Of a stretch of DNA of 64,000 bases, positions 4,828 to 63,026 are shown in pieces. The stretch covers positions 967,233 to 1,031,232 of the forward strand of contig JAFDZW010000005.1 in the NCBI GenBank assembly GCA_018266755.1. The letters are read 5' to 3'. Under the pieces are notes generated by a model. The model did no database searches and was not told the origin of the DNA. It saw only the letters and a program-made list of their open reading frames with translations. A program made the translations under genes and the position numbers. The number at the start of each line of letters is the position of its first letter. The first letter of the stretch is position 1. Origin of the DNA: Bacteroidota bacterium. GTDB lineage: Bacteria > Bacteroidota > Ignavibacteria > Palsa-1295.

Positions 4828-5012
4828 GTCGTATTCTCCGAAGAAATTTCCACGCACTACGTGAGGTTTTTGTGAGGCGGTTTTCGTGCATAGCCACATA
4901 TATTCGTCCGTACTCATTCCATCGACACAGGCGCCCGCTACGAATGGTCACGATCGTATACGCCCGTCGGCCGACGGTGGTATTTCATTGCAACTACACA
5001 TCACCTACTACT

Positions 5013-46242: not shown

Positions 46243-47965
46243 TATTTTCATCTCGTACTCCCGCAACGACTCCGAGCAGGCTCTTGCCTTAGCCGAGCAA
46301 CTGCGCGCGAACGGATTGGACGTCTGGATCGACCAGCATGGCATCGAAGGGGCAACGAGTTGGAGCAAGGAGATCGCTAATGCGCTACAGGCCTGTCACA
46401 CCATGCTGCTGTTGCTGTCGCCCACCGCTGTTGCATCGAAGAATGTCGCGAAGGAACTCTCGGTCGCAACACAACTAAATAAGCATATTGTCCCGGTTCA
46501 GGTCGTTCGAACGACGCTTGAAGGCGAGTTCCTCTACCATCTCTCTGCGCTGCAACGCGTCAAGATAGCAGACGTAGATGCAATTCTCCGTGCGATCGCC
46601 GGCACTGCGCAGGATCGACCGGTGCGTCACGCACCTAAACCGATCGATGAACGGAAGTCGCTGATGATCCTGCCGTTCAAGGATCTCTCTCCGACAGCCG
46701 ACAACGGCTGGTTCGCCGATGGGATGGTCAGCGAACTCATCGACTCCCTTTCGCATATCAAGTCATTGCGGTTGGTGGACAAACAGACGACGAACGAGTA
46801 CAAGACCTATCAGGGCCACCTCGCCGACTATGCCCGCGAAATGGGCATCCGATTCTTCGTACAAGGCGACGTCCGGAAGTTCGGCGACCAGATCAAGATC
46901 TCGTGCACCTTGCTCGACATCGATACTGCCGATCACTTATGGCAGATCTCCCATAAGGGGACGATGTCCGACATCTTCGACATGCAGGAAGAGCTTGCGA
47001 GAAAAGTGGTCGATGGTCTGAAGCTGCATCTGCTCGCATCGGAAGAGAAGAAGCTTTCAAGCCGCGGCACCTCGAATGCCGAAGCGTATGAGATGTACTT
47101 GAAGGCCGAGGAATTCTATGACAAAGACACGAAAGTCTCAGTAGAATACGCCATGAAGGCGATCGAACGAAGCCTGGAGTTGGACCCAGATTTCCCGCAA
47201 GCGATGCTGCGGCGTGCGATCATTCTTGTTCGTTACCAACACGGATTTGGGGGTAGTGCGGAAATGCTCGATGAAGCCGAAGCCCTATTTGAAAGGGCAA
47301 AGAAAAAGCTCTCCCCTTCCGACGATTGGCGTGTTCTCGCCGGTCCGGGTATTCTGGCAATGGCGCGCGGCAATTTTGCATTGGCCGAATCGATCGCTCG
47401 TGAGAATGTCTCGATCGATCCGAACGATTATTACAGGCACAATGCACTGGCGTATTGTCTGTTCCTTCAAGGTCGGTACGAAGAGGTGCTCGTCGAACAT
47501 GAAGCATGTCTTGCGATCGTTCCTGAATCCTACAAATGTGCGCGCCAGATCGTCATGATGGCATGGAATATGGATCGGCCCGACCTCAAAGCTGATTATG
47601 CCCGGCGATTCATTCATCTGTTCCGGCGGAGAATGCAGCTCATGCCGAATGACGATGAAGCCTCCGTTCTCTATGGATTGTTACTGTTCTACCTCGGCCG
47701 CAGAGACGATGCACTCAGTCATCTCGACACGATCAGTGACGATCATATCACCGACGAATTGTCTTTTCGAATCCTCGCATGCCTTGCGGCACTTCTTGGC
47801 AGACCGGAGCGAGCAATCCGGTCGATGCAGTTGAGTGCTGAGATGGATCTGAACGAATGGCACCTGGCCTTGCTTAATAAGTCGGAGCTCGATTCGCTCA
47901 GGGACAGAGAAGACTTCCGTCGATTGGCAGAAGCTTGGAAAGCACGGTTGACGTCCAATGGCTGA
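46235..47965 (+). CDS. TIR-domain protein, paralog B (TIR – TolB_N-like – TPR), soluble
   Basis: 'MADIFISYSRNDSEQALALAEQLRANGLDVWIDQHGIEG', 'MILPFKDLSPTADNGWFADG'. The start ATG overlaps the upstream stop (ATGGCTGA). Confidence 0.8.
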   Translation: MADIFISYSRNDSEQALALAEQLRANGLDVWIDQHGIEGATSWSKEIANALQACHTMLLLLSPTAVASKNVAKELSVATQLNKHIVPVQVVRTTLEGEFLYHLSALQRVKIADVDAILRAIAGTAQDRPVRHAPKPIDERKSLMILPFKDLSPTADNGWFADGMVSELIDSLSHIKSLRLVDKQTTNEYKTYQGHLADYAREMGIRFFVQGDVRKFGDQIKISCTLLDIDTADHLWQISHKGTMSDIFDMQEELARKVVDGLKLHLLASEEKKLSSRGTSNAEAYEMYLKAEEFYDKDTKVSVEYAMKAIERSLELDPDFPQAMLRRAIILVRYQHGFGGSAEMLDEAEALFERAKKKLSPSDDWRVLAGPGILAMARGNFALAESIARENVSIDPNDYYRHNALAYCLFLQGRYEEVLVEHEACLAIVPESYKCARQIVMMAWNMDRPDLKADYARRFIHLFRRRMQLMPNDDEASVLYGLLLFYLGRRDDALSHLDTISDDHITDELSFRILACLAALLGRPERAIRSMQLSAEMDLNEWHLALLNKSELDSLRDREDFRRLAEAWKARLTSNG

Positions 47966-49703
47966 TATTTTTATCTCATACTCGCGCCACGATTCGGAGC
48001 AGGCTCTTGGTTTGGTCGCTCACTTGCGCGCGCAGGGTGTGGATGTCTGGATCGACCAGCACGGCATCGAAGGGGCGGCGAGTTGGAGCAAGGAGATCGC
48101 CAACGCACTGGAATCCTGCCATACGATGCTCCTGCTGCTTTCGCCGACGGCTGTCACATCGGAGAACGTTGCGAAGGAATTGGCGGCCGCGACGCAGCTC
48201 AAGAAACGCATTGTCCCGGTACAGGTCATCCGCACTGCCCTCAGCGGTGAATTTCTCTATCATCTCTCCGGCCTGCAGCGCGTGAAGATCGCGGACGTCG
48301 ACGGCATTCTGCGTGCGATCAATACGAGTAAGTCGTCGGCCATCCCGATTCAGCCGAAGGCTGTACAACCTGTTGACGAGCGCAAGAGCCTCATGATTCT
48401 GCCGTTCAAGGATCTCTCCCCGACCGCCGATAACGGCTGGTTCGCCGACGGCATCGTCAGCGAACTCATCGACTCGCTCTCGCGCGTGAAGTCACTGCGA
48501 TTGGTAGATAAACAGACAACGAGCGAGTACAAGACCTATCAAGGTCATTTAGCTGATTATGCTCGCGAGATGCGCATTCGCTACTTCCTGCAGGGCGACG
48601 TTCGGAAGTTCGGCGATCAGATCAAGATCTCTTGCACGTTGCTCGATATCGACACCGCCGATCACTTATGGCAGATCTCCCACAAAGGGACGATGTCCGA
48701 TATCTTCGACATGCAGGAAGAACTTGCGAGAAAAGTGGTCGATGGGCTGAAGGTGCACCTGCTCGCATCGGAAGAGAAGAAGCTTGCGAACCGGGGTACG
48801 TCGAATGCCGAAGCGTATGAGATGTACTTGAAATCCGCAGAGTTCTTCGGCAAGCACACCAAGGTCGGCACGGAGCATGCGCTCGCCTCGATCAGGCGTG
48901 CGCTGGAGCTCGACCCCAACTTTCCACAGGCCATGCTTCGCTGTGCGATCATTCTGATCACATTGCATCAACATTTTGGATGGCCGGCCAACGTTCTGGA
49001 TGAGGCAGACCGTCTGCTTGAGGCTGCGCGGCTGGTGCTTTCCCCTACCGATGACTGGCGGGTGTTGGGGACACACGCGTTGCGATTGTGGGTATCCGGC
49101 GATCCTGATGCAGCCGAAGCATTGATGCGTGAGAACCTTCGCATCGATCCGGCGGACACGGATCGCCTCAACCAGCTCGGAGTCTTCCACTCGGTGCAGC
49201 ATCGGTTTTCAGAAGCGTTGGTCGAATTCGAAGCAATATTCGCCCTCACCCCAGATTCCTATCGCGCCGCCAGAACGTTGATCGGGACAGCATGGGCACT
49301 TCGAGATCGCGACCGCAAAGTGCAGTACGCACACCAGTTTTTCGATCTCGTGGTTGCGCGCATGAGCACCATGCCGGATGATGACGATGCTCGTATCGTC
49401 TATGGGCTGTTGCTGGTCTATCAAGGCAGGATCGACGAAGCACGGCAACAGCTCCATGCATTTCCGGACGATCACATCGTCATCGAAGAATCCTACCGCA
49501 ACCTTGCCGGGCTCGCCGCGATGGTCGGTGAAGGCGACCGCGCCATTCGTCTCTTGCAGACGTTCACCGAGCGGTTCGGGACAACGCTCACTGCTGAGCA
49601 TCTGCTGTGGTTTAGTGATCAGGAGTTCGAACCCATCAGCGATCGAGAAGAGTTTATTCGCCTCGAAGAAGAGTGGACACGCCGCGTACATTCTAATGGC
49701 TGA
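47958..49703 (+). CDS. TIR-domain protein, paralog C. Very similar to B across the TIR and TolB_N-like domains and divergent in the C-terminal TPR region
   Basis: 'MADIFISYSRHDSEQALGLVAHLRAQGVDVWIDQHGIEG'. Same ATGGCTGA junction at both ends. Confidence 0.8.
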   Translation: MADIFISYSRHDSEQALGLVAHLRAQGVDVWIDQHGIEGAASWSKEIANALESCHTMLLLLSPTAVTSENVAKELAAATQLKKRIVPVQVIRTALSGEFLYHLSGLQRVKIADVDGILRAINTSKSSAIPIQPKAVQPVDERKSLMILPFKDLSPTADNGWFADGIVSELIDSLSRVKSLRLVDKQTTSEYKTYQGHLADYAREMRIRYFLQGDVRKFGDQIKISCTLLDIDTADHLWQISHKGTMSDIFDMQEELARKVVDGLKVHLLASEEKKLANRGTSNAEAYEMYLKSAEFFGKHTKVGTEHALASIRRALELDPNFPQAMLRCAIILITLHQHFGWPANVLDEADRLLEAARLVLSPTDDWRVLGTHALRLWVSGDPDAAEALMRENLRIDPADTDRLNQLGVFHSVQHRFSEALVEFEAIFALTPDSYRAARTLIGTAWALRDRDRKVQYAHQFFDLVVARMSTMPDDDDARIVYGLLLVYQGRIDEARQQLHAFPDDHIVIEESYRNLAGLAAMVGEGDRAIRLLQTFTERFGTTLTAEHLLWFSDQEFEPISDREEFIRLEEEWTRRVHSNG

Positions 49704-51438
49704 TATTTTCATCTCATACTCACGCAAAGACCTCGACCAAGCGCTTTCGCTTGTCGAACGACTCAAGGCGGCCGGTTTTGATGTCTGGATCGACCGGCAC
49801 GGGATCGAGGGGGCGAATAGTTGGAGCAAGGAGATCGCCAATGCACTCGAATCGGCCTCGATCTTCTTGTTGCTACTCTCCGAATCTTCCGTCGCATCGC
49901 CGAATGTCTCGAAAGAACTCGGCGTCGCGACCCTGCTACAAAAACGGATCGTCCCGCTGCGACTGGACCGTGTCGAACTCCGAGGTGAGTTCTTGTATCA
50001 CTTGGCGAATCTGCAGTACGTTCGGTTCGAGGAGTTCGATGCGCTCGTGAGCGTTTTGAGTGGCAAGCCGACTCCGCGCGGAGTGACACCCGCAAAGAGC
50101 TCGGACGACCGCAAGAGCCTGATGATCCTGCCCTTCGACGACCTCTCGCCTACCGCGGACAACGGCTGGTTCGCCGATGGCATTGTCAGCGAAATGATCA
50201 GCGCTCTTTCGAACGTCAAATCATTGGTCGTCACTGACCCGCAGACGACCAAGGACTTCAAACGCTATAAAGGCGCGCTTCCTGCCTATGCGAAGGAGAT
50301 GTCGATCCGATATTTCGTGCATGGCGATGTGAGGAAGTTCGGGGACAGCATCAAGATCACCGCCCGTCTTCTGGATATTGCGACTGGAGATTACCTGTGG
50401 CAAGAGTCCATGAAAGGCACGATGAGCGACATCTTCGAGATCCAGGAGCATGTAGCGAAAAAGGTGCTTGATGGACTGGCGGCGATCCTTTCGACCGAAG
50501 AGACATCGACACTTTCCACGCACGGAACCAAGAACACCGACGCCTATGAACTATTCTTGAAGGCCTGCGAGTACTATGCACGAAACACGCTGGAAGGATT
50601 TCGACTTACTGCTCAGCTCTGCGACGAAGCGATCCGCCTTGAGCCCGAATATGTTCAGCCGATCAATTACAAGGCGCTCGCACTACTAGCGATCTATCGG
50701 CATTACGAACGAGACCCTCGGCTGTTGGGCGAAGCGGAGCGACTCTGTCAGGAGGCACTGCGGCTCAACGCTGGTTTTCGCCAAGCATACTTCCCTTTGT
50801 CGCAGATACAGTTGTATCGTGGCAAGATCGCTCAAGCAGAGGAGACCGCAATCGAATACATCAGGAAGGCGCCTGATGACTTTCACAGCCATTTCACGCT
50901 CGCTTTCGTCTACGGTCAAAGCAACAACTACTCCAGAGCGATCCCGCTCATGGAAGAAGCGATTCGTCTGCGGCCCGGCGATCTTGTCTTGTTGTGGAAC
51001 CTTGTGGTGGTGTGCGACAGTGCAGGCGCGAAAGAGAAATGCGCTCAGTGGGCTGAAGAAGCACTTCCGTACTTCGAACGCTATACTAAGCTGCATCCCG
51101 ATCATGAAGACAAACGTCTCATTCATGCGGCGCTTCTGCAGATGAGCGGAAGAACGGATGCCGCCCATGCTGCCGCGACAAGGCTCAAGGCCTCTCGAGA
51201 TGCGGTGACTCTCTACAATACTGCCTGTCTCTTTGGGAAGGTCGATGACAAGAACGAAGCACTCGCGACACTCAAAATGTCTATCGAGACAGGGATGAAG
51301 GACGTCGATGCACTAAAGCACTTTCTTGCCGATACTGATCAGGGGGTCGCGTCACTCTCGGGGACCCCGCAATTCGAAGAGGTGCTACGTTTGATTGAAT
51401 CGCTAGAAGGCGAAACCGATCCAAGAACGCATGGCTGA
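49696..51438 (+). CDS. TIR-domain protein, paralog D (TIR – TolB_N-like – TPR)
   Basis: 'MADIFISYSRKDLDQALSLVERLKAAGFDVWIDRHGIEG'. Start trimmed from ORF 49378..51438 to the Met overlapping the stop of C. Confidence 0.8.
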   Translation: MADIFISYSRKDLDQALSLVERLKAAGFDVWIDRHGIEGANSWSKEIANALESASIFLLLLSESSVASPNVSKELGVATLLQKRIVPLRLDRVELRGEFLYHLANLQYVRFEEFDALVSVLSGKPTPRGVTPAKSSDDRKSLMILPFDDLSPTADNGWFADGIVSEMISALSNVKSLVVTDPQTTKDFKRYKGALPAYAKEMSIRYFVHGDVRKFGDSIKITARLLDIATGDYLWQESMKGTMSDIFEIQEHVAKKVLDGLAAILSTEETSTLSTHGTKNTDAYELFLKACEYYARNTLEGFRLTAQLCDEAIRLEPEYVQPINYKALALLAIYRHYERDPRLLGEAERLCQEALRLNAGFRQAYFPLSQIQLYRGKIAQAEETAIEYIRKAPDDFHSHFTLAFVYGQSNNYSRAIPLMEEAIRLRPGDLVLLWNLVVVCDSAGAKEKCAQWAEEALPYFERYTKLHPDHEDKRLIHAALLQMSGRTDAAHAAATRLKASRDAVTLYNTACLFGKVDDKNEALATLKMSIETGMKDVDALKHFLADTDQGVASLSGTPQFEEVLRLIESLEGETDPRTHG

Positions 51439-51550
51439 TATGTTCATCTCGTACTCACACAAAGACCTTGAGCAGGAAATGTCGCTTGTCGAGCGATTCA
51501 TTTCACCAGACGCCCTGATTTTCTCATTCCATCTATCATTATGTCACTGA
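51431..51550 (+). pseudogene. 5' remnant of a further TIR paralog (MADMFISYSHKDLEQEMSLVERF..., 39 codons then stop)
   Basis: Starts at the same ATGGCTGA junction on the stop of paralog D. Keeps ~22 aa of the TIR N-terminus, then diverges and terminates where the BNR gene begins. Confidence 0.6.
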
Positions 51551-53367
51551 AACACCTTGCCCTGATAGTATTGATCTCTTCTGCCCGAATTGCGACGGCG
51601 CAGGAGGTTGCACCGCAGACTCCGGAATCCGACCGTGAACTCAGTCGTGCTCTGAAAGTCGCGAAGCTCGGCGATCGACTCTATCGGGAATGCGACGTAT
51701 TTCGGCGCGTGATCGATCATCAACTATCTCAACAGCCAGCATCGCAAGTATCGAGCGTTCTATCGACCGAACCACTTCAGTCGCTCGGCGACACATCACT
51801 GGATATTACGCATTCCTCTTCAGACGAGTCTGAGACAACCGTCGCGATCAGCCGTACGAATCCAAACATGATCGTTGTCGGGTTCAATGACGCGGCACAA
51901 ATAGCGAATGGGATAGGCATGACCGCCTGCGTTTCCACCGATGCCGGAAATACGTGGTCACGACAGCATTTGCCAAAAGTGAATTTCCACGGAGCAAACG
52001 CGTGGTGCGATCCTATTCTCACGTGCGATGATTCCGGCATGTTCTACTATGCCTTCCTCATCATCACACCCAACATGTCGCTGAGTGATATTATGGTCGG
52101 GCGCAGCAAAGACGGTCGGAATTGGGTGCTGGGGTCACCGGTTGTCGGTGACACGATCGCACCAACCAAACTGCAGGATAAACCCACGATCGCTGTCGAT
52201 CGCGATCCGAACAGCCCATACCACGGGAGGCTCTATATTGCATGGTCGGAATATCCGTCACTCGCCGACACATTGTGGGATGGGATCAATTATGTGGCAT
52301 ATAGCGATGATCATGGCGTCAGTTGGTCAAAGCCGTTAGAGTATAGCACCGCATTCGGACACTTTGCAACACTGCGTATCGGCAAAGGCGGAACGGTGTT
52401 CATTTCTTCGAATAACTTTCGCGACGAGACCGTTGCCTCGTTCGCCGTGGAAGTCTCGCATGACGGCGCTAAGACGTTCTCTGAGTATCCGATCGCGATG
52501 CGACAAAAAGCATATCCCGTCGATCATAATGTCTATATGTATGCCATGTTAAAGGGGTCGAAGGGTTTCCGAATCGACCCCTACATTAGCTTCGATCTCG
52601 ATCCCGAAACAAATGATCTGTTTGCCGTGTACGGATCGTACGACACGATCAAGAAAGCCGCCCGCGAATTCATCGTTCGTTCGACCGACGAAGGCGTGTC
52701 GTGGTCATCCCCCATTCAGGTAGGCGATCCAACGCTCTTAGGACTCGACCATTGTATGCCGTGGGTGAGCTTCGACCCCTCTACAAAAAAGGCATACGTA
52801 ACAATGTATAGTTCTGAAGAGGATACAGCCAATGTGCTTATGCGGAGAGTTCGATACTCCTTCGATACACCAACGAACGCCGAGCCGCTCGGGACCCGAC
52901 TTTTCAACCCACTCCTCGCTTCAGTCGCGACCGGGGGTCGTTGGGCTAATATGGGCGACTATACGTATAGCGATGCCTTCGGTGGCACGTTCGTCGATGT
53001 CTGGGCCGAGAACCGTCCACCCAGCTACAATGACGGCGATGTCTTCGCATACGTTTCTTCACCGGCGACACACGCCGGTGTGATCCGTCAACTCAATGCA
53101 CCAACGATCGCGATCAGTGACCTCAGCCCGAATCCGGTGCATGGAGATCGGATCAGCTTCACACTGACCGGCGACCGTTCGAGGGAAGTACTCATTCATG
53201 TGCAAGACGTTCTGGGGCACGAAGTCTTGAGTGCCACTGCAAAGCTGGATGCAGGTACTCTCACAGATGTAACACTCGATATCGGAACGCTCGCCGCCGG
53301 GAGCTATCTCATAGTTATCGATGGCAATGACGAATCTGTCTGCCGGCGTTTTGTCATTGTTCGATAA
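51541..53367 (+). CDS. T9SS cargo: BNR/Asp-box repeat sialidase-like glycosyl hydrolase, sitting inside the TIR array
   Basis: Signal peptide. Asp-boxes 'STDAGNTWS', 'SDDHGVSWS', 'STDEGVSWS'. C-terminal 'LSPNPVHGD...GSYLIVIDGNDESVCRRFVIVR' T9SS CTD. Confidence 0.7.
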   Translation: MSLKHLALIVLISSARIATAQEVAPQTPESDRELSRALKVAKLGDRLYRECDVFRRVIDHQLSQQPASQVSSVLSTEPLQSLGDTSLDITHSSSDESETTVAISRTNPNMIVVGFNDAAQIANGIGMTACVSTDAGNTWSRQHLPKVNFHGANAWCDPILTCDDSGMFYYAFLIITPNMSLSDIMVGRSKDGRNWVLGSPVVGDTIAPTKLQDKPTIAVDRDPNSPYHGRLYIAWSEYPSLADTLWDGINYVAYSDDHGVSWSKPLEYSTAFGHFATLRIGKGGTVFISSNNFRDETVASFAVEVSHDGAKTFSEYPIAMRQKAYPVDHNVYMYAMLKGSKGFRIDPYISFDLDPETNDLFAVYGSYDTIKKAAREFIVRSTDEGVSWSSPIQVGDPTLLGLDHCMPWVSFDPSTKKAYVTMYSSEEDTANVLMRRVRYSFDTPTNAEPLGTRLFNPLLASVATGGRWANMGDYTYSDAFGGTFVDVWAENRPPSYNDGDVFAYVSSPATHAGVIRQLNAPTIAISDLSPNPVHGDRISFTLTGDRSREVLIHVQDVLGHEVLSATAKLDAGTLTDVTLDIGTLAAGSYLIVIDGNDESVCRRFVIVR

Positions 53368-53382
53368 TTTCCCGAACGACCC

Positions 53383-55116
53383 GTGGCTGATATCTTCATC
53401 TCATACTCACGCAAAGACGCCGAAGCGGCGCTCGCATTAGCGGAGCGTCTGCGCAGTGACGGCGCGAGCGTGTGGATGGATACAGCCGCATTGGCGGCAG
53501 CCGAGACCTGGAGCGCGGAGATCGTCACTGCGATCGAAGGGTGTACGTTCTTCATCGTCCTGATCTCACCGAATGCTGTGGCGAGCAGAAACGTGACCAA
53601 AGAGGTGTCGCTCGCTTCGGAGTCGAAGAAGACGATCATCCCGATCGAGCTCGTGCGGTGCGAACTCAATCCCGCAATGAAGTATGCGCTCGCCGGCCTG
53701 CAGAAGGTGAAGCTCCACGATGAAGTAACACTGCACCGCAGCCTTTCCAAACTGGGACTCGCTCCGGGAGTTCATACTGCACCGTCGGCTCCCCAAGCAG
53801 TAGCATCGCCATCTCGTGCGGACTCTGGCCCCACACGCCTTGCCGTGTTTCCGTTCGAAGATCAATCGCCCACACGCGACCACGAGTGGTTCAGCGATGG
53901 GCTCACCGATGAACTGATCTCGATGCTCAACAAGGTCGATGCGCTGCTCGTACTCGATCGCAACTCGACGCGCGCATATCGCGATGCGAAGATGACGACC
54001 AAGCAGATCGCTCGTGAACTGCAGGTACGATATGTGATCGTCGGTGCCGTCCGCAAAGCGGGCGAGAAGATCAGGGTTCAGGCATCGCTCATCGATCCCG
54101 AGACCGGAAAGGTGCTGTGGGATGAGAAGTTCAACGGCACCATGGACGATATCTTCGAGATCCAGGAGAAGACGGCCCGAGATATTGTCGAAGGACTGAA
54201 GATCACGCTCACCCCGGCAGAACGCAGCTCACTCGATCAGAAGATGACGGACTCGCCCGAGGCATACGAACTGCTCATGCGAGCGAGCCGCAAACTCGAT
54301 GAGGAAATGGATCATGCCGGAGGAACGCGCTTGGCAGAACGCGCCTTGGAGATTGATCCGAACTGTGCCGCAGCCCTTTATCTGATCTCGGTCGCGACGT
54401 CGAACCAATATCGAATCGGTAACCGATCCGATGCGTCACTGCTCGAACGCGAACGCGGACTCGTCAAGCAACTGATGACACTTGCTCCTGAGACGCACTA
54501 TTGTTATATCGCCCGAGCAAATTATTACCTGAACATCGACGAGACGGAGCTCGCCGTGGAAATGGCGGAGCGAGCCGTCAGCGTTAGTCCGAAACGCCCC
54601 CGATCTCACGGTGTGCTTGGGTTTATTTATTCGCGTCTCAATCGTCCGGCCGATGCGGTCAGAGAATTTCGTCGTGCGATCGAGCTCGATCCGAACTCCG
54701 GTACTGATCATGTCAGCCTCTTGACCGTCCTCTTTGTCAGTGGAGCGCCGCTCGAACAATTGCGCGCCCAGTACCCGAACGTCAAACGACACCTTGACGC
54801 ACGGATAGCTGAGTACCCCGACTCGCTCAGGATTCGGACGGAACTGCTGAATGCTGCCATCCAAGCGCAAATCCCGGACGATGCCGTAGCAGTTGCTGAA
54901 GCCATCCTCGCCAGAGGAGATGTGGACGCTGATACCGAATACTGTTGCGCCGAGGCCTTCGTACTCGCCGGCGATCTCGAGCGAGGCCGCACACATCTTC
55001 GCTCCGCGATCGATCGAGGCCAGGACACCTTCACCATTTGGGATGAATCCGGTTTCCTCCCGCTCAACGGCACGCCGGAATACGACTTCCTGGTTGCACA
55101 TATTGCAAGAGACTAA
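53383..55116 (+). CDS. TIR-domain protein, paralog F (TIR – TolB_N-like – TPR). GTG start
   Basis: '(V)ADIFISYSRKDAEAALALAERLRSDGASVWMDTAALAAAETW', 'LAVFPFEDQSPTRDHEWFSDGLTDELI'. Confidence 0.75.
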   Translation: MADIFISYSRKDAEAALALAERLRSDGASVWMDTAALAAAETWSAEIVTAIEGCTFFIVLISPNAVASRNVTKEVSLASESKKTIIPIELVRCELNPAMKYALAGLQKVKLHDEVTLHRSLSKLGLAPGVHTAPSAPQAVASPSRADSGPTRLAVFPFEDQSPTRDHEWFSDGLTDELISMLNKVDALLVLDRNSTRAYRDAKMTTKQIARELQVRYVIVGAVRKAGEKIRVQASLIDPETGKVLWDEKFNGTMDDIFEIQEKTARDIVEGLKITLTPAERSSLDQKMTDSPEAYELLMRASRKLDEEMDHAGGTRLAERALEIDPNCAAALYLISVATSNQYRIGNRSDASLLERERGLVKQLMTLAPETHYCYIARANYYLNIDETELAVEMAERAVSVSPKRPRSHGVLGFIYSRLNRPADAVREFRRAIELDPNSGTDHVSLLTVLFVSGAPLEQLRAQYPNVKRHLDARIAEYPDSLRIRTELLNAAIQAQIPDDAVAVAEAILARGDVDADTEYCCAEAFVLAGDLERGRTHLRSAIDRGQDTFTIWDESGFLPLNGTPEYDFLVAHIARD

Positions 55117-55117
55117 C

Positions 55118-56839
55118 GTGGCAGATATTTTCATTTCATACTCACGCAAAGATTCCGAGCAGGCACTCGCACTTGCCGATCGGCTACGCTCGAGCGGAGC
55201 GGATGTCTGGATGGACACCGCATCGCTGACGGCGGCAGAAACATGGAGCGCGGAGATAGTGTCGGCGATCCGCAGTTGTCACACGTTCATCGTGATGCTC
55301 TCGCCGAATTCGGTCACTTCGAAGAATGTGGTGAAAGAAGTCGGGCTGGCGTCGGAGCGCGACAAACGGATCATCCCGATCGTGCTCGAGCCATGCGTTC
55401 TCAGCGATGCAATGCAGTACGCACTCGCGGGCATTCATCACGTAAAGATCAACGACCGGGACGCATTGGACCGAGCATTAAGCAAGATCGGCCTCGTCGC
55501 AACCACCCCCGTCGCTGAAGCACCGAGCGACCCGGTATCTGCATTCCCCGACAACCTCATTCGCATCGCCGTGCTGCCGTTCGATGACCAATCCCCTGCC
55601 CATGACCACGAATGGTTCAGCGATGGCCTGACCGACGAACTGATCTTGACATTGAATAAGCTCGATGCACTCTTTGTGCTTGACCGGAAATCTTCGCAAC
55701 TCTACAAGGATGCTCGCATCTCCGTGAAGCAGATCGCGGCCGAGCTCAACGTCCGCTACATCATTAGCGGCGCCGTGCGCAAAGCCGGACAGAACATTCG
55801 CGTGCAGGTGTCACTCATAGAGGCGACATCGGGCGTAACGCTCTGGGATGAAAAATTCTCGGGGACGATGGATGACATCTTTGAGATCCAGGAAAGAACC
55901 GCGTTCGACATTGCCGAAGGCTTGAAGCTGAAGCTCACGCCGGCTGAAATGCTCCTGCTCGAAGAAAAGACAACAACATCTTCTGAAGCGTATCGTCTGC
56001 TTCTGCAAGCCCGGGAAAAGAACAACAGCTTCGCCGACAGTGCCGGCGCCATTGAGGATCTCAAGCATGCCATCAGGATCGATCCCGGATTCCTTCCCGC
56101 ATACGCGATACTCTCTGTCGCGTATGCAAACGAATATCGCAGCTCGAACCGTACCAACGCAACCCTCCTCGATCTCTCGAAACGAGCAATGGACGAGATC
56201 AGGCAAATCGATCCGAACTCGCCCTTCTACTATGGTCCATGCGCCAATTACTATCTGAATATCGGCGAGCGCGAACTCGCATTGGACATGGCGAACAAGC
56301 TCGTTGAGCTTCGGCCAAAACAATTTGTGTCGTACGCGATCCTCGGATTCATGCAGGATTCGCTCGGCAACTACCGCGAGGCGATGCGCGCGTTCCAACG
56401 GGCCATCGAGCTCGATCCGGCAACGGCCACGAACTATGTGAAGCTGGCTACCGCGGCGTTCCGACTGGGCGAAATGGATGCGATCGAATGGTGTTGGGAG
56501 AAAGGGCGGCCGTTGTACGAGCGCTTGATCGCAGCACACCCGGAACGGATGTGGGCCAAACTGGAGTACTTGTTTCTCTCCCTCTTTGCTGGGTATGTTG
56601 ACATTGCTGTAGAAATGGCAGAATCGATCGAACGCTTACCTGACCTCCCTCTCGAGACCCATACGCAGCTTGCCGCAGTCTGGATGGCCAATGGCCAGAT
56701 CGAGCGCGGGACCAAAGCGTTACAGTATGCGATCGACGGAGGGTATGTGGCGTTCGAAGGCATGGACCGACGTCTCTATCGCGCGATCGAAGGCACACCG
56801 TTGTACCAGTTCGTCCTCGATCACATTGTACGACCCTGA
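55118..56839 (+). CDS. TIR-domain protein, paralog G (TIR – TolB_N-like – TPR). GTG start. Closest to F
   Basis: '(V)ADIFISYSRKDSEQALALADRLRSSGADVWMDTASLTAAETW', 'IAVLPFDDQSPAHDHEWFSDGLTDELI'. Start inferred inside ORF 54893..56839. Confidence 0.75.
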   Translation: MADIFISYSRKDSEQALALADRLRSSGADVWMDTASLTAAETWSAEIVSAIRSCHTFIVMLSPNSVTSKNVVKEVGLASERDKRIIPIVLEPCVLSDAMQYALAGIHHVKINDRDALDRALSKIGLVATTPVAEAPSDPVSAFPDNLIRIAVLPFDDQSPAHDHEWFSDGLTDELILTLNKLDALFVLDRKSSQLYKDARISVKQIAAELNVRYIISGAVRKAGQNIRVQVSLIEATSGVTLWDEKFSGTMDDIFEIQERTAFDIAEGLKLKLTPAEMLLLEEKTTTSSEAYRLLLQAREKNNSFADSAGAIEDLKHAIRIDPGFLPAYAILSVAYANEYRSSNRTNATLLDLSKRAMDEIRQIDPNSPFYYGPCANYYLNIGERELALDMANKLVELRPKQFVSYAILGFMQDSLGNYREAMRAFQRAIELDPATATNYVKLATAAFRLGEMDAIEWCWEKGRPLYERLIAAHPERMWAKLEYLFLSLFAGYVDIAVEMAESIERLPDLPLETHTQLAAVWMANGQIERGTKALQYAIDGGYVAFEGMDRRLYRAIEGTPLYQFVLDHIVRP

Positions 56840-57097: not shown

Positions 57098-58048
57098 ATG
57101 TCAGAAAAGAAAATCATCGTCGTCTTCGGGGCGACTGGCGCACAGGGCGGCGGACTCGTCCGCGCGATCTTGAACGATAGCAATAGCGAATTCTCGGTGC
57201 GCGCCGTTACGCGTGACACCACTTCTCCGAAGGCGCAAGCGATTGCCGCAATGGGCGCAGAACTTGTTGCCGGTGATGTCGATGACATCGCTTCCGTGAA
57301 GAAGGCATTGCAGGGCGCGTACGGAGCGTACTTCGTCACGTTCTTCTGGTCGCACTTCTCGGCAGAGAAAGAGACCGCCGAAGCGAAGGCGCTTGCCGAA
57401 GCCGCGAAGGAAGCCGGCTTGAAGCATGTGATCTGGTCCACGCTCGAAGACGTACGTAAGTTCGTGCCGCTCGCTGACAGCTCGATGCCGACACTGCACG
57501 GCAAGTACAAAGTCCCGCACTTCGACGGCAAAGGCGAAGCCGATCAGTATTTCATCGCAGCGGGCGTCCCGACGACGTTCTTGCTCGCGTCATTCTACTG
57601 GGAGAATCTGATCTACTTCGGTTCGGGTCCGAAGCGTGGTGCCGATGGCAAGCTCGCACTGACTTTCCCGATGGGCAACAAGAAGATGGCGGGCATCGCA
57701 TCCGAGGATATCGGTCGCTGCGCGTACGGCATCTTCAAGAAAGGTCCGTCGATGGCCGGCAAGCGCATCGGTATCGCGGGCGAACATCTGAGCATCGCCG
57801 AGATGGCGACGGCATTGTCGAAGGCGATCGGTGAAGAAGTAGTGTATAACGAAGTCACCCCCGATGTCTATCGCAGCTTCGGCTTCCCGGGTGCGGACGA
57901 TGTCGGCAACATGTTCCAATTCTATCGCGACTTCGAAGAGGTGTGCAACACCACGCGCAATGTCAGCTACTCGAAAGAGCTGAACCCGCAGCTGCAGTCG
58001 TTCGAAACCTGGCTCGCAACCAACGCGAAGAGCATCCCGCTCGACTAA
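57098..58048 (+). CDS. NmrA-like family NAD(P)-binding protein (atypical SDR)
   Basis: 'IIVVFGATGAQGGGLVRAIL' Rossmann motif. Length and 'HFDGKGEADQY' fit NmrA/HSCARG. Confidence 0.8.
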   Translation: MSEKKIIVVFGATGAQGGGLVRAILNDSNSEFSVRAVTRDTTSPKAQAIAAMGAELVAGDVDDIASVKKALQGAYGAYFVTFFWSHFSAEKETAEAKALAEAAKEAGLKHVIWSTLEDVRKFVPLADSSMPTLHGKYKVPHFDGKGEADQYFIAAGVPTTFLLASFYWENLIYFGSGPKRGADGKLALTFPMGNKKMAGIASEDIGRCAYGIFKKGPSMAGKRIGIAGEHLSIAEMATALSKAIGEEVVYNEVTPDVYRSFGFPGADDVGNMFQFYRDFEEVCNTTRNVSYSKELNPQLQSFETWLATNAKSIPLD

Positions 58049-58085
58049 GCGCGAATCTCCGAGGTACGACCAGTACCGCAACCGG

Positions 58086-58127
58086 CCCCTGTCAGCTCGA
58101 TCACCACGAGTGGCAGGGGTTTTGTTT
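58086..58127 (+). terminator. rho-independent terminator after the NmrA-like gene
   Basis: 'cccctg...cagggg' stem followed by 'ttttgttt'. Confidence 0.5.
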
Positions 58128-58168
58128 GGCCGGCGAAATTCAAACCGCCTCCGTCGCAGCACATCCTT

Positions 58169-58371
58169 GAATCAACCACCCCAACCCCGCCTTGAAAAGG
58201 CGGGGCCTCTTGTTATCTTTGCTTACGCAGGTTCATGATTTGCCTACAAGGAGTATTCTGTGCTGCTTGAAGCTAAATGCGATTGCACTTGCGCACTAAA
58301 ATCGTAATTGGCGTAAGCAAAGTAAATTAGATAGCCCCGCCTTTTCAAGGCGGGGTTGGGGTGGTTGATTC
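58169..58371. mobile_element. MITE-like ~203-bp palindromic element, copy 1 (38-bp terminal inverted repeats with an internal 'ccccgcc ttgaaaa ggcgggg' hairpin)
   Basis: Left TIR 58169..58206 'gaatcaaccaccccaaccccgccttgaaaaggcggggc' and its reverse complement at 58334..58371. Inner 12-bp IR 'ctttgcttacgc/gcgtaagcaaag'. A second copy lies 600 bp away. Confidence 0.6.
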
Positions 58372-58383
58372 GTATTTTCGCAC

Positions 58384-58794
58384 ATGCTCCGCCGATTCAA
58401 CAATAACCCGATCAACAAAGACCGCCGTCGCGAGTTACGCTCGAATCCTACGCGCGCGGAATCAGAATTGTGGCACGGACTTCGCAATCATCGCTCCGGG
58501 TACAAATTCCGCCGCCAGCAAGGGCTCGGGCCATTCATCGTGGATTTCTACTGCCCCGCATTTCATCTCGCGGTAGAAGTCGATGGCGCAACGCATGATT
58601 CGCTCGAGCAACAAGAGTACGATTCGCGAAGGAGCGAATACCTGCGTGCAAATGGAATCGACGCCATCCGCTTCACAGACGGCGAAGTGCTGTGGAGCGT
58701 AGATATCTGCGTAGCGAAGATCGCCGAACGGATCGAAGAGATCAAACGAGGACGTGGTGGCACATCGGAATCAACCACCCCAACCCCGCCTTGA
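58384..58794 (+). CDS. DUF559 endonuclease-domain protein (Vsr/PD-(D/E)xK-like)
   Basis: 'LRSNPTRAESELWHGLRNHRSGYKFRRQQGLGPFIVDFYCPAFHLAVEVDGATH' is the DUF559 signature. The last ~9 codons (STTPTPP*) are encoded by the left end of MITE copy 2. Confidence 0.75.
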   Translation: MLRRFNNNPINKDRRRELRSNPTRAESELWHGLRNHRSGYKFRRQQGLGPFIVDFYCPAFHLAVEVDGATHDSLEQQEYDSRRSEYLRANGIDAIRFTDGEVLWSVDICVAKIAERIEEIKRGRGGTSESTTPTPP

Positions 58795-58967
58795 AAAGGC
58801 GGGGCGTCTTATCATCTTCGCTTACGCCGGTTGAAGATATCCGTACATGGAATAGTTATTGCGGCGTACGCTGAACCCAGTTGCACTTGAACACCACATT
58901 CAAAATTGGCGTAAGCAAAGTACATTAGATAGCCCCGCCTTTTCAAGGCGGGGTTGGGGCGGTTGAC
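58768..58967. mobile_element. MITE-like ~200-bp palindromic element, copy 2
   Basis: Same 38-bp TIRs (58768..58805 and 58933..58967) and the same inner 'gcttacgc...attggcgtaagcaaagta.attagata' core as copy 1. Confidence 0.6.
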
Positions 58968-59081
58968 CTCGGCCACCAGAATGAATGCCTGCAATAGACA
59001 GCTGTAATTCTAAAGCTACCCAGCATAATGAGTGCAAAGTAAAAGCCACGTCGTAATCGCTCGGCGAGCTATGAGCAAGAA

Positions 59082-59345
59082 TTGCTGGCGTCGCTGAAGA
59101 ACCCCGACGAAGCGCTCGCATATCTGCGTGTCTCATTTCAGGTCGACGACCCGCGAGTTTTCCTTACCACACTGCGCCGTGTCGCACAAGCCAACGGCGG
59201 TTTCACCGAACTTACCGCCCGCACCGGCCTCAACCGCGAGAACCTCTACCGAACGCACTCCCCCACCGGCAACACGAAGTTCGTCAATATCGAAGCAGTG
59301 CTGCGATCGTTTGGGATGAAGTTGACGGTGGAGAGGGTAAGCTGA
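59082..59345 (+). CDS. HigA-family addiction-module antidote protein (TIGR02684-like), orphan and possibly 5'-truncated
   Basis: 'SLKNPDEALAYLRVSFQVDDPRVFLTTLRRVAQANGGFTELTARTGLNRENLYRTHSPTGNTKF...VLRSFGMKLTV' matches the 'putative addiction module antidote' family. The open frame extends to 59043 with no ATG, and there is no toxin gene upstream. Confidence 0.55.
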   Translation: MLASLKNPDEALAYLRVSFQVDDPRVFLTTLRRVAQANGGFTELTARTGLNRENLYRTHSPTGNTKFVNIEAVLRSFGMKLTVERVS

Positions 59346-59590: not shown

Positions 59591-60598
59591 ATGGCACAAA
59601 TTAAGTATCTTACCGCTCTAATCCGAGCCCACGTTGAGGGTGATGAGACTACTTTCAGAAGGCTGGTACTTCAATTGGCATCAATCGAAGCGAGTGCCGG
59701 ACATAGTCATGCTGCACAACAGATTAGAGAAGTACTCGACCAAAGTACCACTAAAGTACTCGGACAGCAAACAGGGAAACCCATTCCCTACGTAAATAGC
59801 CCTGGTACTCGTGTCGATCTCTCAGGACTACTTCATGCGAGCAATCGAGAGGAGCGTCTTGGAGATATCGTTCTGGCTCCTGCTACGAGACACACTCTTG
59901 AGCGCGTATTGGAAGAATGGCGTAACAGCTCTCTGTTGGAATCCCACAGCCTAAGGAAACGCAACAAACTCCTTTTAGTCGGACCTCCCGGATGTGGCAA
60001 GACTTTCTCTGCGAGAGTTCTAGCTGGTGAACTGCACCTTCCACTTTTCGTGGTAAGACTAGATGGTCTCATTTCCCGGTTTCTAGGAGAAACGGCCAAC
60101 CATCTTCGGAATATTTTTGAGGCAATGCAATTGACTCCTGGCGTATACCTGTTTGACGAATTCGATGCCATCGGAACAAACCGTGGAGAGGGCAGGGACG
60201 TTGGTGAAATCAGACGAGTATTGAGCGCATTCCTTCTTCTTCTGGAAAACTTCGCGGGCAACAGTCTGATAATCGCTGCTACAAATTATAAGGACTTGCT
60301 GGATCATGCTCTGTTTAGGCGATTCGATGATGTTATTGAGTATCCCCTTCCATCACCACACGATTTGGAATCCCTATTCAAACTTAAGGTCTCCGGTTTC
60401 GTCCATGCTCCGATCGAGTTTCCCGAGCTTGCAAAACTTGCTACCGGTATGAGTTATGCAGATGCTACAAAGTGTGTGATGGAAGCTATGAAGAATACTG
60501 TCATTGCAAAAAAGTCGAAGCTCACCGAATCTTCAATTGTCAACGCAATCCTGGAAAGGAAAGGATTGAAATCTCAGGAACAATATCCCTCCAGCTAG
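59591..60598 (+). CDS. AAA+ ATPase (classical AAA clade). Candidate IetA-like defence ATPase
   Basis: Walker A 'LLVGPPGCGKTF', Walker B 'VYLFDEFDAIG', sensor-1 'IIAATN' and an arginine finger. Lower G+C than the flanks. Confidence 0.85.
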   Translation: MAQIKYLTALIRAHVEGDETTFRRLVLQLASIEASAGHSHAAQQIREVLDQSTTKVLGQQTGKPIPYVNSPGTRVDLSGLLHASNREERLGDIVLAPATRHTLERVLEEWRNSSLLESHSLRKRNKLLLVGPPGCGKTFSARVLAGELHLPLFVVRLDGLISRFLGETANHLRNIFEAMQLTPGVYLFDEFDAIGTNRGEGRDVGEIRRVLSAFLLLLENFAGNSLIIAATNYKDLLDHALFRRFDDVIEYPLPSPHDLESLFKLKVSGFVHAPIEFPELAKLATGMSYADATKCVMEAMKNTVIAKKSKLTESSIVNAILERKGLKSQEQYPSS

Positions 60599-60611
60599 TG
60601 ATTACTAGCGA

Positions 60612-63026
60612 ATGGCACGCAGATTTGAGCTAAAACACCTATCCCTTCCCGATCCTCTAAAAGAGGGCTACAAAGCTCCCCAATCCGGTCGGAAGATTGA
60701 AGTTCCTAGTCGTGATCCTGAAACTCACGCATCCGAACTAAGGAGACAATTAAGAGAAATAAAGCGGGATGCCCTTCCAGGGGACAGGATCGTTGCTATC
60801 AAAGGAAGTCCGTCTCTAATTGCCAAGTTGGACTCCCTAACTGATCGATCAAGAGATCAGGAGGTTCTGCAAACGCGACAGAGCGATAATAACAACCTAA
60901 CTGCCATCGTCCGATTTTCGAGGCGTGGAATTGGAAAGTTCGAGCGGAAGCTGGACGCTTACCAATCCGGATCGAACTTGACGACGAAGAAGCCGAAAAA
61001 CAACGATCTATTTGCAAGCATAGAAGGGATTACCCAAGCTCTACTAGAAGACCTGTTCGTTGGCGATCAAACCATTCTCCGGTCCGATCCAGCGATTCCA
61101 CTATGGTGGGAGTTGTGGATTAGGGGTGGAGTATTAGAACCTCAACTAGCCAAACAGGCTCGGACTAAACTCTCCGAACTGGCAGACTCCTTAGATGTCT
61201 CCATCGAAATGGAGAAGAGGATAGTTCTTTCCGAAAGACAGATTTTGCTCGTTGAATTCACACTTGACCAACTGCGATGGTTGGTAGGAGAGTATGAAGA
61301 CATTGCAGAAATTAGAAAGCCGAGTAGGACTGTAGTACAGAGTCTCTCACACGCCAGACACGTGATTGCTGACATTTCTGCACTAGCTAATCGGATTGAA
61401 CCACCTAGTGATCTTATGGCCCCAAGCGTCGCCCTCATCGACACAGGCTTGAACGATGGACATTCGCTGCTAAACAAGATAATTGCGCAGGATGGTCTAT
61501 TTTCAATAGACTCAGCTTCGGAATCGACAAGTGACTCATACCCTACAGGTCATGGAACTCCAGTGGCAGGGGTGGCGGCATACAGTGACCTTGCGGGACT
61601 GATTGGTGGTGGTGGACATGAAAAACTTGACCATTGGATCGAGTCTGTCCGAGTCCCGCGAGACGAGGATGGTTCTTCACGACACCTTTGGGGTGCAACA
61701 ACAAAAGCCGCGATAGATAAGATTGAGCAGGGGCAGCCACGTCAACGAGTTTTCTGCTTGGCATGGGGCGCCGAAACTGACACCCCAACATACAGAACAT
61801 CATGGTCCTCGGAGGTTGACATGCTGGCATACAACCGGGGAAAAGGACGTGTCGTCATGGTTAGCGGTGGTAACCTCCCTGATGGCAGCAACGATCATGG
61901 ACGGATTCAACGCCCGACGGACTATCCACTACGCAACATGACAACCTTTCTACACGACCCTTCATTTGCTCTCAACTGCTTATGTGTCGGGGGATATACT
62001 GAACTCTGTGACATTCTCCCTCCCCGACCGAATCTTGAAGCACTTGCAAAACTCGGGCAGTTATCACCTTTTTCCAGGACCGGCCAAGCTGGAAAACCGA
62101 TCAAACCAGATATTGTCTGTGAAGGCGGAAATCTTGTGTGGGATGGCTATTTCCTAAGCAACAATGAGGATGGACTTAGCATCTTAACGACTAGTGCAGA
62201 TATACAGCGAGGCCCTTTCGAAAATGCATCGGGTACGAGTCCTGCTGTAGCTGCAGGTGCTCGTATTGCGGCCAAGGTGTGGGCCTCCAATACCAAACTG
62301 AGCCCACAATCCATTAGAGGACTAGTTGTGCATTCCGCCTCATGGACCGATGCAATGAACGAGCAATTTCCAGTCAAGGCGGACAGACTTCGTGCATTCG
62401 GATACGGTGTCCCTAATCTTGGGTTCGCGTGCAGAAGCGCAATATCAGCGACCACACTAATATCCGAGGATACAATATTTCTTCGGAAAACCGTCGAAAA
62501 TCGGACCGTTGATGCTAGAGAGGTTTGTTTCTATGATCTTCCGTGGCCAAGACATTTCTTAGAGTCGATCCCAGACACAGAGGTAGAAATTAGAGTCACA
62601 CTATCATACTTTGCTGAACCCAAATCCGGGGATGGCGCAGACTATCAAGGTGCTGCACTTCGATGGCGGATGCAAGGGCCGGTCGAAAAGGAATTGGAGT
62701 TTCTCAAGCGTGTGAATGCATCAAGAAGAGATGACGACGTTTCTACAGGCTTTAGTGATCCAATTCACTGGGAAATCGGTTACCAGTCCCGCAGCAAGGG
62801 TTCGGTGCAGTCTGATCGCTGGGTAACAACGGCTACCCAGCTTGCTGCCTGTGGAAAGATTGCTGTCTTTCCCAAATATGGCTGGTGGGACTATAACCGG
62901 GTCAAACGCCCCCACCAGGAGCTGGCATTTTCTCTTATCGTCTCCGTCACAGCAAAGGACGAGTCTATCGACCTGTATTCAGCGATTGAGAATGAGTTGA
63001 GAATCCCAGTTATTCTTGAAACCTAG
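60612..63026 (+). CDS. S8 subtilisin-like serine peptidase. Candidate IetS-like partner
   Basis: Catalytic triad motifs 'VALIDTGLN' (Asp), 'GHGTPVAGVAAY' (His) and 'GTSPAVAAGA' (Ser). Follows the ATPase with a 13-bp gap. Confidence 0.85.
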   Translation: MARRFELKHLSLPDPLKEGYKAPQSGRKIEVPSRDPETHASELRRQLREIKRDALPGDRIVAIKGSPSLIAKLDSLTDRSRDQEVLQTRQSDNNNLTAIVRFSRRGIGKFERKLDAYQSGSNLTTKKPKNNDLFASIEGITQALLEDLFVGDQTILRSDPAIPLWWELWIRGGVLEPQLAKQARTKLSELADSLDVSIEMEKRIVLSERQILLVEFTLDQLRWLVGEYEDIAEIRKPSRTVVQSLSHARHVIADISALANRIEPPSDLMAPSVALIDTGLNDGHSLLNKIIAQDGLFSIDSASESTSDSYPTGHGTPVAGVAAYSDLAGLIGGGGHEKLDHWIESVRVPRDEDGSSRHLWGATTKAAIDKIEQGQPRQRVFCLAWGAETDTPTYRTSWSSEVDMLAYNRGKGRVVMVSGGNLPDGSNDHGRIQRPTDYPLRNMTTFLHDPSFALNCLCVGGYTELCDILPPRPNLEALAKLGQLSPFSRTGQAGKPIKPDIVCEGGNLVWDGYFLSNNEDGLSILTTSADIQRGPFENASGTSPAVAAGARIAAKVWASNTKLSPQSIRGLVVHSASWTDAMNEQFPVKADRLRAFGYGVPNLGFACRSAISATTLISEDTIFLRKTVENRTVDAREVCFYDLPWPRHFLESIPDTEVEIRVTLSYFAEPKSGDGADYQGAALRWRMQGPVEKELEFLKRVNASRRDDDVSTGFSDPIHWEIGYQSRSKGSVQSDRWVTTATQLAACGKIAVFPKYGWWDYNRVKRPHQELAFSLIVSVTAKDESIDLYSAIENELRIPVILET

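Follow-up and report, generated by a model that had tools for sequence, protein, structure and literature searches.

What are the two palindromic elements that bracket a small nuclease gene in a Bacteroidota bacterium, and what ties the gene to them? The question is raised by positions 58169-58967 of a 64,000-nucleotide stretch of contig JAFDZW010000005.1 (assembly GCA_018266755.1), here called the window. At this locus a gene of the DUF559 family, encoding a Vsr-fold PD-(D/E)XK nuclease, lies between two palindromes of about 200 bp. An earlier reading of the same DNA (the sequence-only reading) took the palindromes to be similar to miniature inverted-repeat transposable elements (MITEs) and their insertion to have remodelled the gene's 3' end. 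The present analysis indicates that what recurs as a module is a single 38-nt arm, rather than the whole 200-nt element. This arm falls in the BoxC/PIT/triplex motif (TM) class of intrastrand-triplex repeats in the broad sense (general ITxF class II, G/C-rich) and does not belong to the strict TMECO subfamily. Across phyla, the genes of this family keep a conserved setting, with a repeat on either side of a small Vsr-fold nuclease gene.

Copy 1 of the element occupies 58169..58371 (203 nt) and copy 2 occupies 58768..58967 (200 nt), neither being assigned to a strand. Each is an inverted pair of triplex-type arms with a core between them, of 127 nt in copy 1 and 126 nt in copy 2. The DUF559 open reading frame (ORF; 58384..58794, plus strand, 136 aa; Pfam DUF559 E = 1.9e-26) is bracketed by the two copies at the coordinates and with the sequences originally described. 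The left arm of copy 1 (58169..58206) has its G-rich motif strand on the minus strand and fits the three-block design described below, and the right arm (58334..58371, plus strand) is placed directly 5' of the gene. In copy 2 the left arm (58768..58805, minus strand) overlaps the end of the ORF, and the outer end of the right arm (58932..58967, plus strand) is the breakpoint with a low-GC island that carries the IetAS genes. Terminal inverted repeats of 38 bp had been reported for both copies; they are perfect over 38 nt in copy 1, and in copy 2 the arms match over 35 nt at 97% identity. An inner 12-bp inverted repeat, also reported before, was present in both copies, as CTTTGCTTACGC (58218..58229) and GCGTAAGCAAAG (58312..58323) on the plus strand of copy 1 and with one mismatch in copy 2. 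The same inner repeat was seen in L001, L004, L041 and L045, with roughly 37 to 103 nt between its halves. Copies 1 and 2 are direct repeats of each other (83-86% identity). When five full elements from two organisms were aligned, the arms and the inner 12-bp inverted repeat were nearly invariant and the centre of the core varied in both sequence and length.

The DNA flanking the two copies was compared, and no homology was detected (shuffled sequences matched the observed score in 178/300 and 99/300 trials). Since the outer flanks are not homologous, the repeated unit is the element itself. The two copies are non-coding and are real repeats, as the sequence-only reading held, and their origin as parts of a longer duplicated segment was rejected. 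The heptamer GCACATC is shared just to the left of both copies, without significance. Nor is the repeat confined to these two sites: dispersed arms occur in other genomes, and another contig, probably from the window's own metagenome-assembled genome (MAG), encodes a second DUF559 protein whose arm-encoded tail is the same.

Searches with the arm sequence were carried out in the window, in a species collection and in metagenome stretches. The window contains four arms, all of them at copies 1 and 2, against a chance expectation of 0. In the species collection the exact 27-nt arm core was restricted to one genome, a Candidatus Kapaibacterium MAG, with seven sites on six contigs. A degenerate form of the arm matched 25 sites, spread over 24 metagenome stretches; most of these stretches were from sample Ga0114975, where many contigs carried it. 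The arms occur as inward-facing pairs as in the window, as outward-facing pairs, as singles just 5' of genes, and beside runs of tandem hairpins. They outnumber the DUF559 genes, and many arm sites in the same genomes (Kapaibacterium MAG, Ga0114975) are free of the gene.

The 7-bp hairpin of the arm shows covariation. It was CCCCTCC/GGAGGGG in 30 arms and CCCCGCC/GGCGGGG in 11 arms, with no mixed form. Within single Kapaibacterium elements the two arms differ in variant, so that each keeps its own hairpin while the arm-to-arm pairing is broken. The presence of different compensated variants in the two arms of one element indicates that selection acts on the arm and not on the long 200-nt fold. 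The long hairpin proposed in the sequence-only reading is upheld in part. Both copies fold well, with energies of -126.4 kcal/mol (z = -15.8) for copy 1 and -110.7 kcal/mol (z = -14.2) for copy 2, and 0/200 shuffles were as good in either case; selection on this fold was not borne out.

Tandem arrays of small hairpins (period ~33 nt, with a short spacer) adjoin full arms in Ga0114975 (L014 4600-4819; L019 7265-7390; L008 1-140 and 650-760). The outward-facing arm pairs of this sample were considered as internally deleted DUF559 cassettes. This was unsupported, only the arm extensions being matched. In the Kapaibacterium MAG (L003 4392-6840) arms also bracket a gene for an Mrr-like restriction enzyme (4463-5637), and at 6036-6760 of the same contig an arm-bracketed pair of HNH-repeat-like and ASCH-like genes was recognised by eye. 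An ASCH gene is found 3' of the element in L039 as well (3051-3233).

In E. coli, knowledge of the BoxC/PIT/TM repeats goes back to the early 1990s; the repeats are present in hundreds of genomes. BoxC is said to have been first described by Bergler and colleagues in 1992, in the envM (fabI) region. We know of no function and no mobilising enzyme for the family, either in E. coli or in cyanobacteria. According to Holder et al. 2015 (PMC4666352), TMECO repeats are identical with what was called BoxC in the 1990s and with the PIT elements that Hoyne et al. described in 2000. The class is defined there by three consecutive stems, one of pyrimidines, one of purines complementary to it and one of purines that mirrors the second, which form G.G:C, A.A:T or T.A:T triads; stems are 6-15 nt with at most one mismatch, and loops are 1-6 nt. 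When the window arm is parsed as CCCCGCCTT|TTC|AAGGCGGGG|TT|GGGGTGGTT, 9/9 base pairs and 8/9 triads are formed (9/9 triads in the T-variant), with loops of 3 nt and 2 nt in this 9-nt parse, within the limits of the class. A C-rich block, its G-rich complement and a mirror G-rich block are therefore present, from which a small hairpin could form and, in theory, an intrastrand purine-motif triplex as well. The strict TMECO consensus, 5'-CCCTCNCCC N3-6 GGGNGAGGG N3 GGGNGAGGG, is not matched by the window arm (CCCCGCC/GGCGGGG/GGGGTGG). The dispersed, multi-copy, intergenic and often inverted-pair habit of the class was evident in the related genomes; the window itself contains four arms, with indirect signs of further ones in its genome.

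The three-block design fitted 14/14 arms tested (from 11 DUF559 loci and E. coli) over 9-10 positions. Shuffling of the G-rich tail was uninformative as a control for the triplex, 67% of shuffles passing at 7 nt, and was therefore replaced by a cross-lineage control. Compared with the purine block of its own lineage, the mirror block scored at least 0.88 in 10/10 pairs, six of which were perfect. Against purine blocks of other lineages the mean was 0.75, and 7/88 pairs reached 0.9.

The arm resembles TMECO in several respects. Both are G/C-rich units of ~35-38 nt with pyrimidine, purine and mirror purine blocks, dispersed and intergenic, with no transposase nearby; both often form inverted pairs of systematically differing members (type A with type B in E. 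coli, G-variant with T-variant in Kapaibacterium) and are placed at the borders of variable regions. However, besides the departure from the CCCTCNCCC..GGGNGAGGG..GGGNGAGGG consensus, the host here is a Bacteroidota-like MAG while TMECO was reported from Proteobacteria. The paired arms of the window enclose a 127-nt core with a conserved inner inverted repeat, unlike TMECO pairs with their short spacer. No associated gene appears in the published work on TMECO, whereas DUF559 is a constant neighbour here. The repeat class itself is known; the arm sequence subtype, in a Bacteroidota-like MAG, is new.

The sequence-only reading had the ORF run 27 nt into copy 2 and take its C-terminal 'STTPTPP' and its stop codon from the arm. 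Both points were confirmed. The last eight codons and the stop are supplied by the left arm of copy 2, and the TGA (58792-58794) falls within the loop of the arm's small hairpin. The arm begins right where the conserved DUF559 domain ends, and the arms nearest the two ends of the gene both point away from it. These two arms (58334-58371 and 58768-58805) form a perfect 38-nt inverted repeat around the gene. Homologs down to 36% identity and E. coli ycjD share this gene-into-arm junction, which is therefore the ancestral architecture of the gene family. Local remodelling of the 3' end by insertion, as first suggested, is not supported. The C-termini of homologs are likewise translated repeats (for example STAPSPP, STAPSPRLEKAGEF, LNLPPTPSL and TPSPFQGEGRD), and one homolog has an N-terminal extension of like character. 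As the tails of different homologs are read in different frames, it is the DNA that is conserved and not the peptide. In the AlphaFold model of the window protein (mean pLDDT 83) the repeat-encoded tail (residues 126-132) is the sole low-confidence segment.

The association of gene and repeat was read at 11 DUF559 loci: the window, L004, L008, L015, L031, L032, L033 (Methylomonas), L034, L035 (WOR-3), L036 and L039. These loci span Bacteroidota-like MAGs, Methylomonas, WOR-3 and others, and the layout is present in lineage-specific versions. In 11/11 an arm precedes the gene, and the gene ends in, or just before, an inverted arm. Complete inverted arm pairs flank both sides of the gene at most of them. 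L039 repeats the design of the window, with a palindromic element of ~165 nt and a homologous core on each side of the gene. The association is specific as well as conserved. Across these loci (~130 kb) the arm-like matches lie within 350 nt of the gene, and elsewhere only three trivial short matches were obtained. When loci were selected by the arm, a DUF559 gene was present in 3/30, always abutting an arm. In an inverted-repeat survey of the bacterial domain (PMC9881135), 'DUF559 domain-containing protein' was enriched among the coding sequences touched by such repeats (odds ratio 14), as was 'Endonuclease domain-containing protein' (odds ratio 9.6); both were left uninterpreted there. A search of open-access papers for a link between DUF559, Vsr, COG2852 or ycjD and REP, MITE, BoxC or triplex repeats retrieved none. 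Holder et al. (PMC4666352) reported that genes flanking TMECO sites are not functionally correlated, and their text mentions neither ycjD nor DUF559 nor endonuclease. The conserved partnership of DUF559 and repeat thus appears to be undescribed in the searchable open-access literature.

Upstream of the gene, GGGGTTGGGGTGGTT(A/G)ATTC and the hairpin of the right arm of copy 1 are present in L004, L008, L015, L031, L045 and L046. In the window the arm is joined to the ATG by the conserved spacer GTATTTTCGCAC (58372..58383, plus strand). The longer string CGTATnTTTGCACATG was seen between the upstream arm and the start of DUF559 at 58371-58386 of the window, at 4988-5003 of L031, and in L045 and L046. 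The spacer (GTATTTTCGCAC/CGTATnTTTGCACATG) resembles TAnnTTTG, which we take to be the -7 box of Bacteroidetes promoters, and is a candidate for such a box. As the putative box is only 3 nt before the ATG, a leaderless or near-leaderless DUF559 mRNA is suggested. An inner CTTTGC was also considered as a conserved -7 box and was dropped, the fit to TAnnTTTG being confined to copy 1.

E. coli K-12 contains a DUF559 gene, ycjD. Its ORF ends in RSPSP and a stop codon inside a degenerate arm with a C-rich hairpin. About 170 nt 3' of the gene lies CCCTCGCCCCTCTGGGGAGAGGGTTAGGGTGAGGGG, which conforms to the strict TMECO consensus and corresponds to the TMECO that Holder et al. 2015 (PMC4666352) call 'type A mm'. 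CCCTCGCCCCTCTGGGGAGAGGGTTAGGGTGAGGGG was present in 5426/5426 complete E. coli genomes (median 17 places) and ycjD in 3377 of the 5426. Other TMECO copies were counted in 60 evenly sampled genomes. Genomes with ycjD had 12-26 (median 18) and those without had 1-14 (median 3; Mann-Whitney p = 2e-10). Phylogroups A, B1 and C carry the gene, as do ST69 and ST182; in B2, D, E, F and G its place is taken by eefRABCD (PMC12817139). The boundary between the ycjD and eef alleles lies 30-40 nt from the TMECO. In the ycjD-fabI gap of K-12 (L042 ~4300-4365), a partial duplicate of the 3' end of ycjD (ggagacggtgctggagaatattc...) is located ~60-110 nt past the stop codon, with the degenerate arm on one side and the TMECO on the other, and could be left over from an earlier rearrangement.

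In the relative L041, where the DNA is ~91% identical, copy 1 is present at the same site (roughly 93% identical), and the contig ends exactly at the arm. Copy 1 was therefore inherited and not newly inserted. L045, from another assembly, is 96% identical to window 58352-58964, a span that takes in the gene and copy 2; the two sequences part at the arm terminus, so that a breakpoint coincides with the end of the arm. The right flank of L045 was considered as window sequence from beyond the IetAS island, and this was discarded, since no match was obtained anywhere in the window.

To our knowledge, the DUF559 family comprises a very large number of small nucleases, for which there is a solved structure but no assigned function. 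The best sequence match of the window protein among solved structures was 3HRL, an uncharacterised endonuclease-like protein (E = 7e-18). With the model as query, Foldseek returned 3HRL first, followed by the catalytic domain of the I-Bth0305I homing endonuclease (3R3P; E = 9e-4, TM-score 0.70), and Vsr as a distant match (E = 0.064). Residues D54, E65, D67, D80, R83 and R96 do not vary among 25 homologs, and H71 hardly does. Pfam reported DUF559 and a sub-threshold MTES_1575 match but not the Vsr family proper, no methyltransferase adjoins the gene, and no cytosine methyltransferase was found among the window ORFs scanned. Assignment as a Vsr very-short-patch repair endonuclease is not supported. 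The model (58384-58791) also matches the nuclease domains of PvuRts1I and AbaSI, as well as mitoribosomal proteins of Tetrahymena and Toxoplasma (TM-score up to 0.67 on the query).

How might the gene and the arms be linked? The reading that we favour is a partnership of the Vsr-fold DUF559 nuclease with triplex-type repeats, analogous to that of repetitive extragenic palindromes (REPs) and their associated tyrosine transposases (RAYTs); we hold it to be evenly poised between right and wrong. The DUF559 nuclease would recognise the arm by sequence, by non-B structure or by both, and would nick or cut at it. Host recombination or repair, which is invoked because a PD-(D/E)XK hydrolase cannot itself transfer strands, would then copy, homogenise, delete or rearrange the arms and the neighbouring DNA. 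In this way a dispersed arm population would be maintained and the gene would stay embedded in its own repeats. Variable regions would come to have their breakpoints at arm termini, as is seen at the border of the IetAS defence island. The layout of the locus, the kind of repeat, the conserved and specific pairing of gene and repeat and the breakpoint at the end of the arm have been demonstrated here; the action of the nuclease on the arms and their spread through repair are inferred.

The likeness to REPs, paired REPs (REPINs) and RAYTs lies in short palindromic repeats that occur as singles, inverted pairs and clusters, in a low-copy nuclease gene flanked on both sides by repeats dispersed in the same genome (Kapaibacterium MAG, E. 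coli), and in vertical inheritance of the DUF559 locus. In contrast, RAYT is an HUH Y1 transposase, whereas the protein here is a Vsr-fold PD-(D/E)XK hydrolase of ~120-136 aa, so no covalent strand transfer is expected. The window repeat, unlike REPs, has a three-block mirror design and is without a GTAG/CGTC tag. Given the difference in fold, the DUF559 pairing may work like a REPIN-RAYT system and is not a member of it. A wider proposal goes beyond this. DUF559 proteins could be the missing cognate enzymes of BoxC/PIT/TM repeats, in a second, phylum-spanning symbiosis of repeat and nuclease analogous to REPIN-RAYT, with recognition of non-B DNA, local instability and exchange of defence islands at arm termini. 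It is offered tentatively, and we would sooner expect it to fail than to hold.

Several observations weigh against the partnership. Binding or cutting of these repeats by DUF559 proteins is a proposal from anatomy and not from biochemistry, and a triplex at TMECO was undetected in vivo by dimethyl sulfate footprinting in E. coli (PMC4666352). A single query protein led to all 11 loci, so they do not sample DUF559 at random, and a proline-rich tail is present in only about a third of 119 DUF559 homologs. Arm sequence does not simply track protein identity: the L008 and L015 proteins are 36-40% identical to that of the window and have nearly the same arm as the window, and the Methylomonas protein (L033) is 48% identical to it yet has a different arm. 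Only two elements occur in the 64-kb window. In E. coli the split between ycjD and eefRABCD follows phylogroup, which leaves only two or three independent contrasts. The difference is small in D/E-like genomes (13-15 against 12-13 places), and O157:H7-type genomes without ycjD still keep 12-13 copies. With this confounding and these small contrasts, the difference in copy number is suggestive only.

The partnership has to be weighed against five other explanations. The gene could be a homing-type selfish gene, in which case DUF559 would cut solo triplex-type repeats and repair would copy in the repeat-gene-repeat cassette; the repeats would then be targets or landing pads and not products of the nuclease. 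Relatives of DUF559 have been described as an EDxHD homing-endonuclease family (PMC9403480, PMC3424549). The nearest characterised structural relative, I-Bth0305I, shares the catalytic fold, and the gene has the look of a small selfish nuclease gene. Because both flanking copies are homologous to a solo element, the gene could be copied into it by repair of a double-strand break. In L045 and in the window the same cassette adjoins different DNA, and the MAG of the window probably contains at least two diverged copies of the gene. However, the many arms contrast with a low copy number of the gene, copy 1 and ycjD keep to fixed loci through stable inheritance, and no pair of occupied and empty sites was found. 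The gene also stands free between dispersed repeats, and not in an intron, an intein or a conserved host gene, and the ~120-aa protein presumably lacks the extra DNA-binding region of I-Bth0305I. We consider homing unlikely. Somewhat less probable again is passive co-location, by which arms, as recombination-prone or structure-forming DNA, would gather where small, horizontally acquired genes and defence islands have their borders, with DUF559 as a frequent passenger and no enzymatic link. TM loci of E. coli are unusually variable whatever the class of the neighbouring gene (PMC4666352); DUF559 cassettes lie within defence-rich regions, and genes bounded by arms include, besides DUF559, the other nuclease-type cargo of L003. 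What passive co-location leaves unexplained is the same geometry at 11/11 loci and in E. coli, across phyla and with the arm starting at the end of the domain, and the near-absence of arms from the rest of the ~130 kb.

A classical MITE or composite transposon, with 200-nt units moved by an unlinked transposase and two of them able to mobilise the nuclease gene, would account for the terminal inverted repeats, the small size and hairpin potential (as in Correia/NEMIS and Nezha), the multiple copies and the different right-hand context in L045. The check for target-site duplications, proposed in the sequence-only reading, revealed none flanking the five aligned copies. Neither transposase nor integrase was found among the window ORFs scanned, no transposase shares the ends of the element, and no mobility activities were reported at TMECO sites (PMC4666352). 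Moreover, the arm is an independent unit with its own structure, single arms, outward pairs and arrays are common, and the arrangement is conserved across phyla and not sporadic. A MITE is thus improbable. Of the mobilisable composite unit once suggested, the union of nuclease and repeat survives; the gene is held between repeats in the style of REP and RAYT, and not as in a composite transposon. Still less credence is given to an expression module in which the arms act as terminator, insulator, mRNA-stabilising hairpins or small RNA for DUF559 and its neighbours. The GC-rich hairpin with a T-containing tail on one side, the promoter-like box after the upstream arm and the downstream arm after the stop codon would suit such a role, which the sequence-only reading had also raised. 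No Rfam family was matched at a permissive threshold over 57900-59200, and in E. coli PIT elements showed neither promoter nor terminator activity (cited in PMC4666352). The conserved mirror block has no role in a terminator, and the dispersed copies keep no consistent distance or orientation to genes. Least credible of all is an integron-like array without integrase, with the palindromes as attC sites and DUF559 as a cassette. The layout of palindromic site, small ORF and palindromic site, with toxin-antitoxin-type and defence genes nearby, recalls one, and the ends AATCAAC...GTTGATT are one mismatch from the core sites RYYYAAC/GTTRRRY, each of which is missed by one base. However, the arms pair over 38 nt without interruption, extrahelical bases or an unpaired central spacer, and each has its own hairpin and mirror block. 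There is no integrase in the ORFs scanned, only two sites are present, and the partner gene is always DUF559; attC was rejected.

If the partnership of DUF559 and the triplex-type repeats is real, two orphans, the BoxC/PIT/TM repeats and DUF559, would explain each other. The association provides a hypothesis that can be tested directly in E. coli K-12, which has ycjD and 23 TMECO copies, and so opens to experiment both the role of DUF559 proteins and the cause of the spread or instability of BoxC/TM repeats. The proline-rich 'tails' of many annotated DUF559 proteins are explained as translated repeats, and the association with repeats accounts for DUF559 being overrepresented among predicted 'programmed inversion' targets (PMC9881135). 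A passive association would still give a useful, if ordinary, annotation rule. The anatomy by itself is a solid and checkable regularity.

The neighbourhood of the locus was also examined. Just 5' of copy 1 and 3' of an NmrA gene, a strong terminator-like hairpin (CCCCTGTCAG...GTGGCAGGGGTTTTGTTT) is located at 58088-58131 and is kept in L041. Beyond copy 2, an ORF for an HI1420-type antitoxin (59072-59345) has a TTG start and matches its Pfam profile from position 11, and no toxin partner was seen. Since an ATG at 59072 is out of frame by one base, the antitoxin may be frameshifted at its 5' end or truncated there beside the element. The GC content falls to 0.48 in the IetAS stretch, which starts just past the right arm of copy 2. 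It encodes the anti-phage pair IetA (AAA ATPase) and IetS (S8 peptidase) at 59591-63026 (PADLOC E = 2e-76 and 7e-45); NCBIfam IteA/IteS matches to the pair were below cut-off. On the other side, at 44410-56839, six tandem paralogs each have an N-terminal TIR domain and TPR repeats. The array is interrupted by a BNR/Por-secretion-tail gene (51541-53367) and is also present in L041. The array has the appearance of a gene family of defence or NADase type that has expanded.

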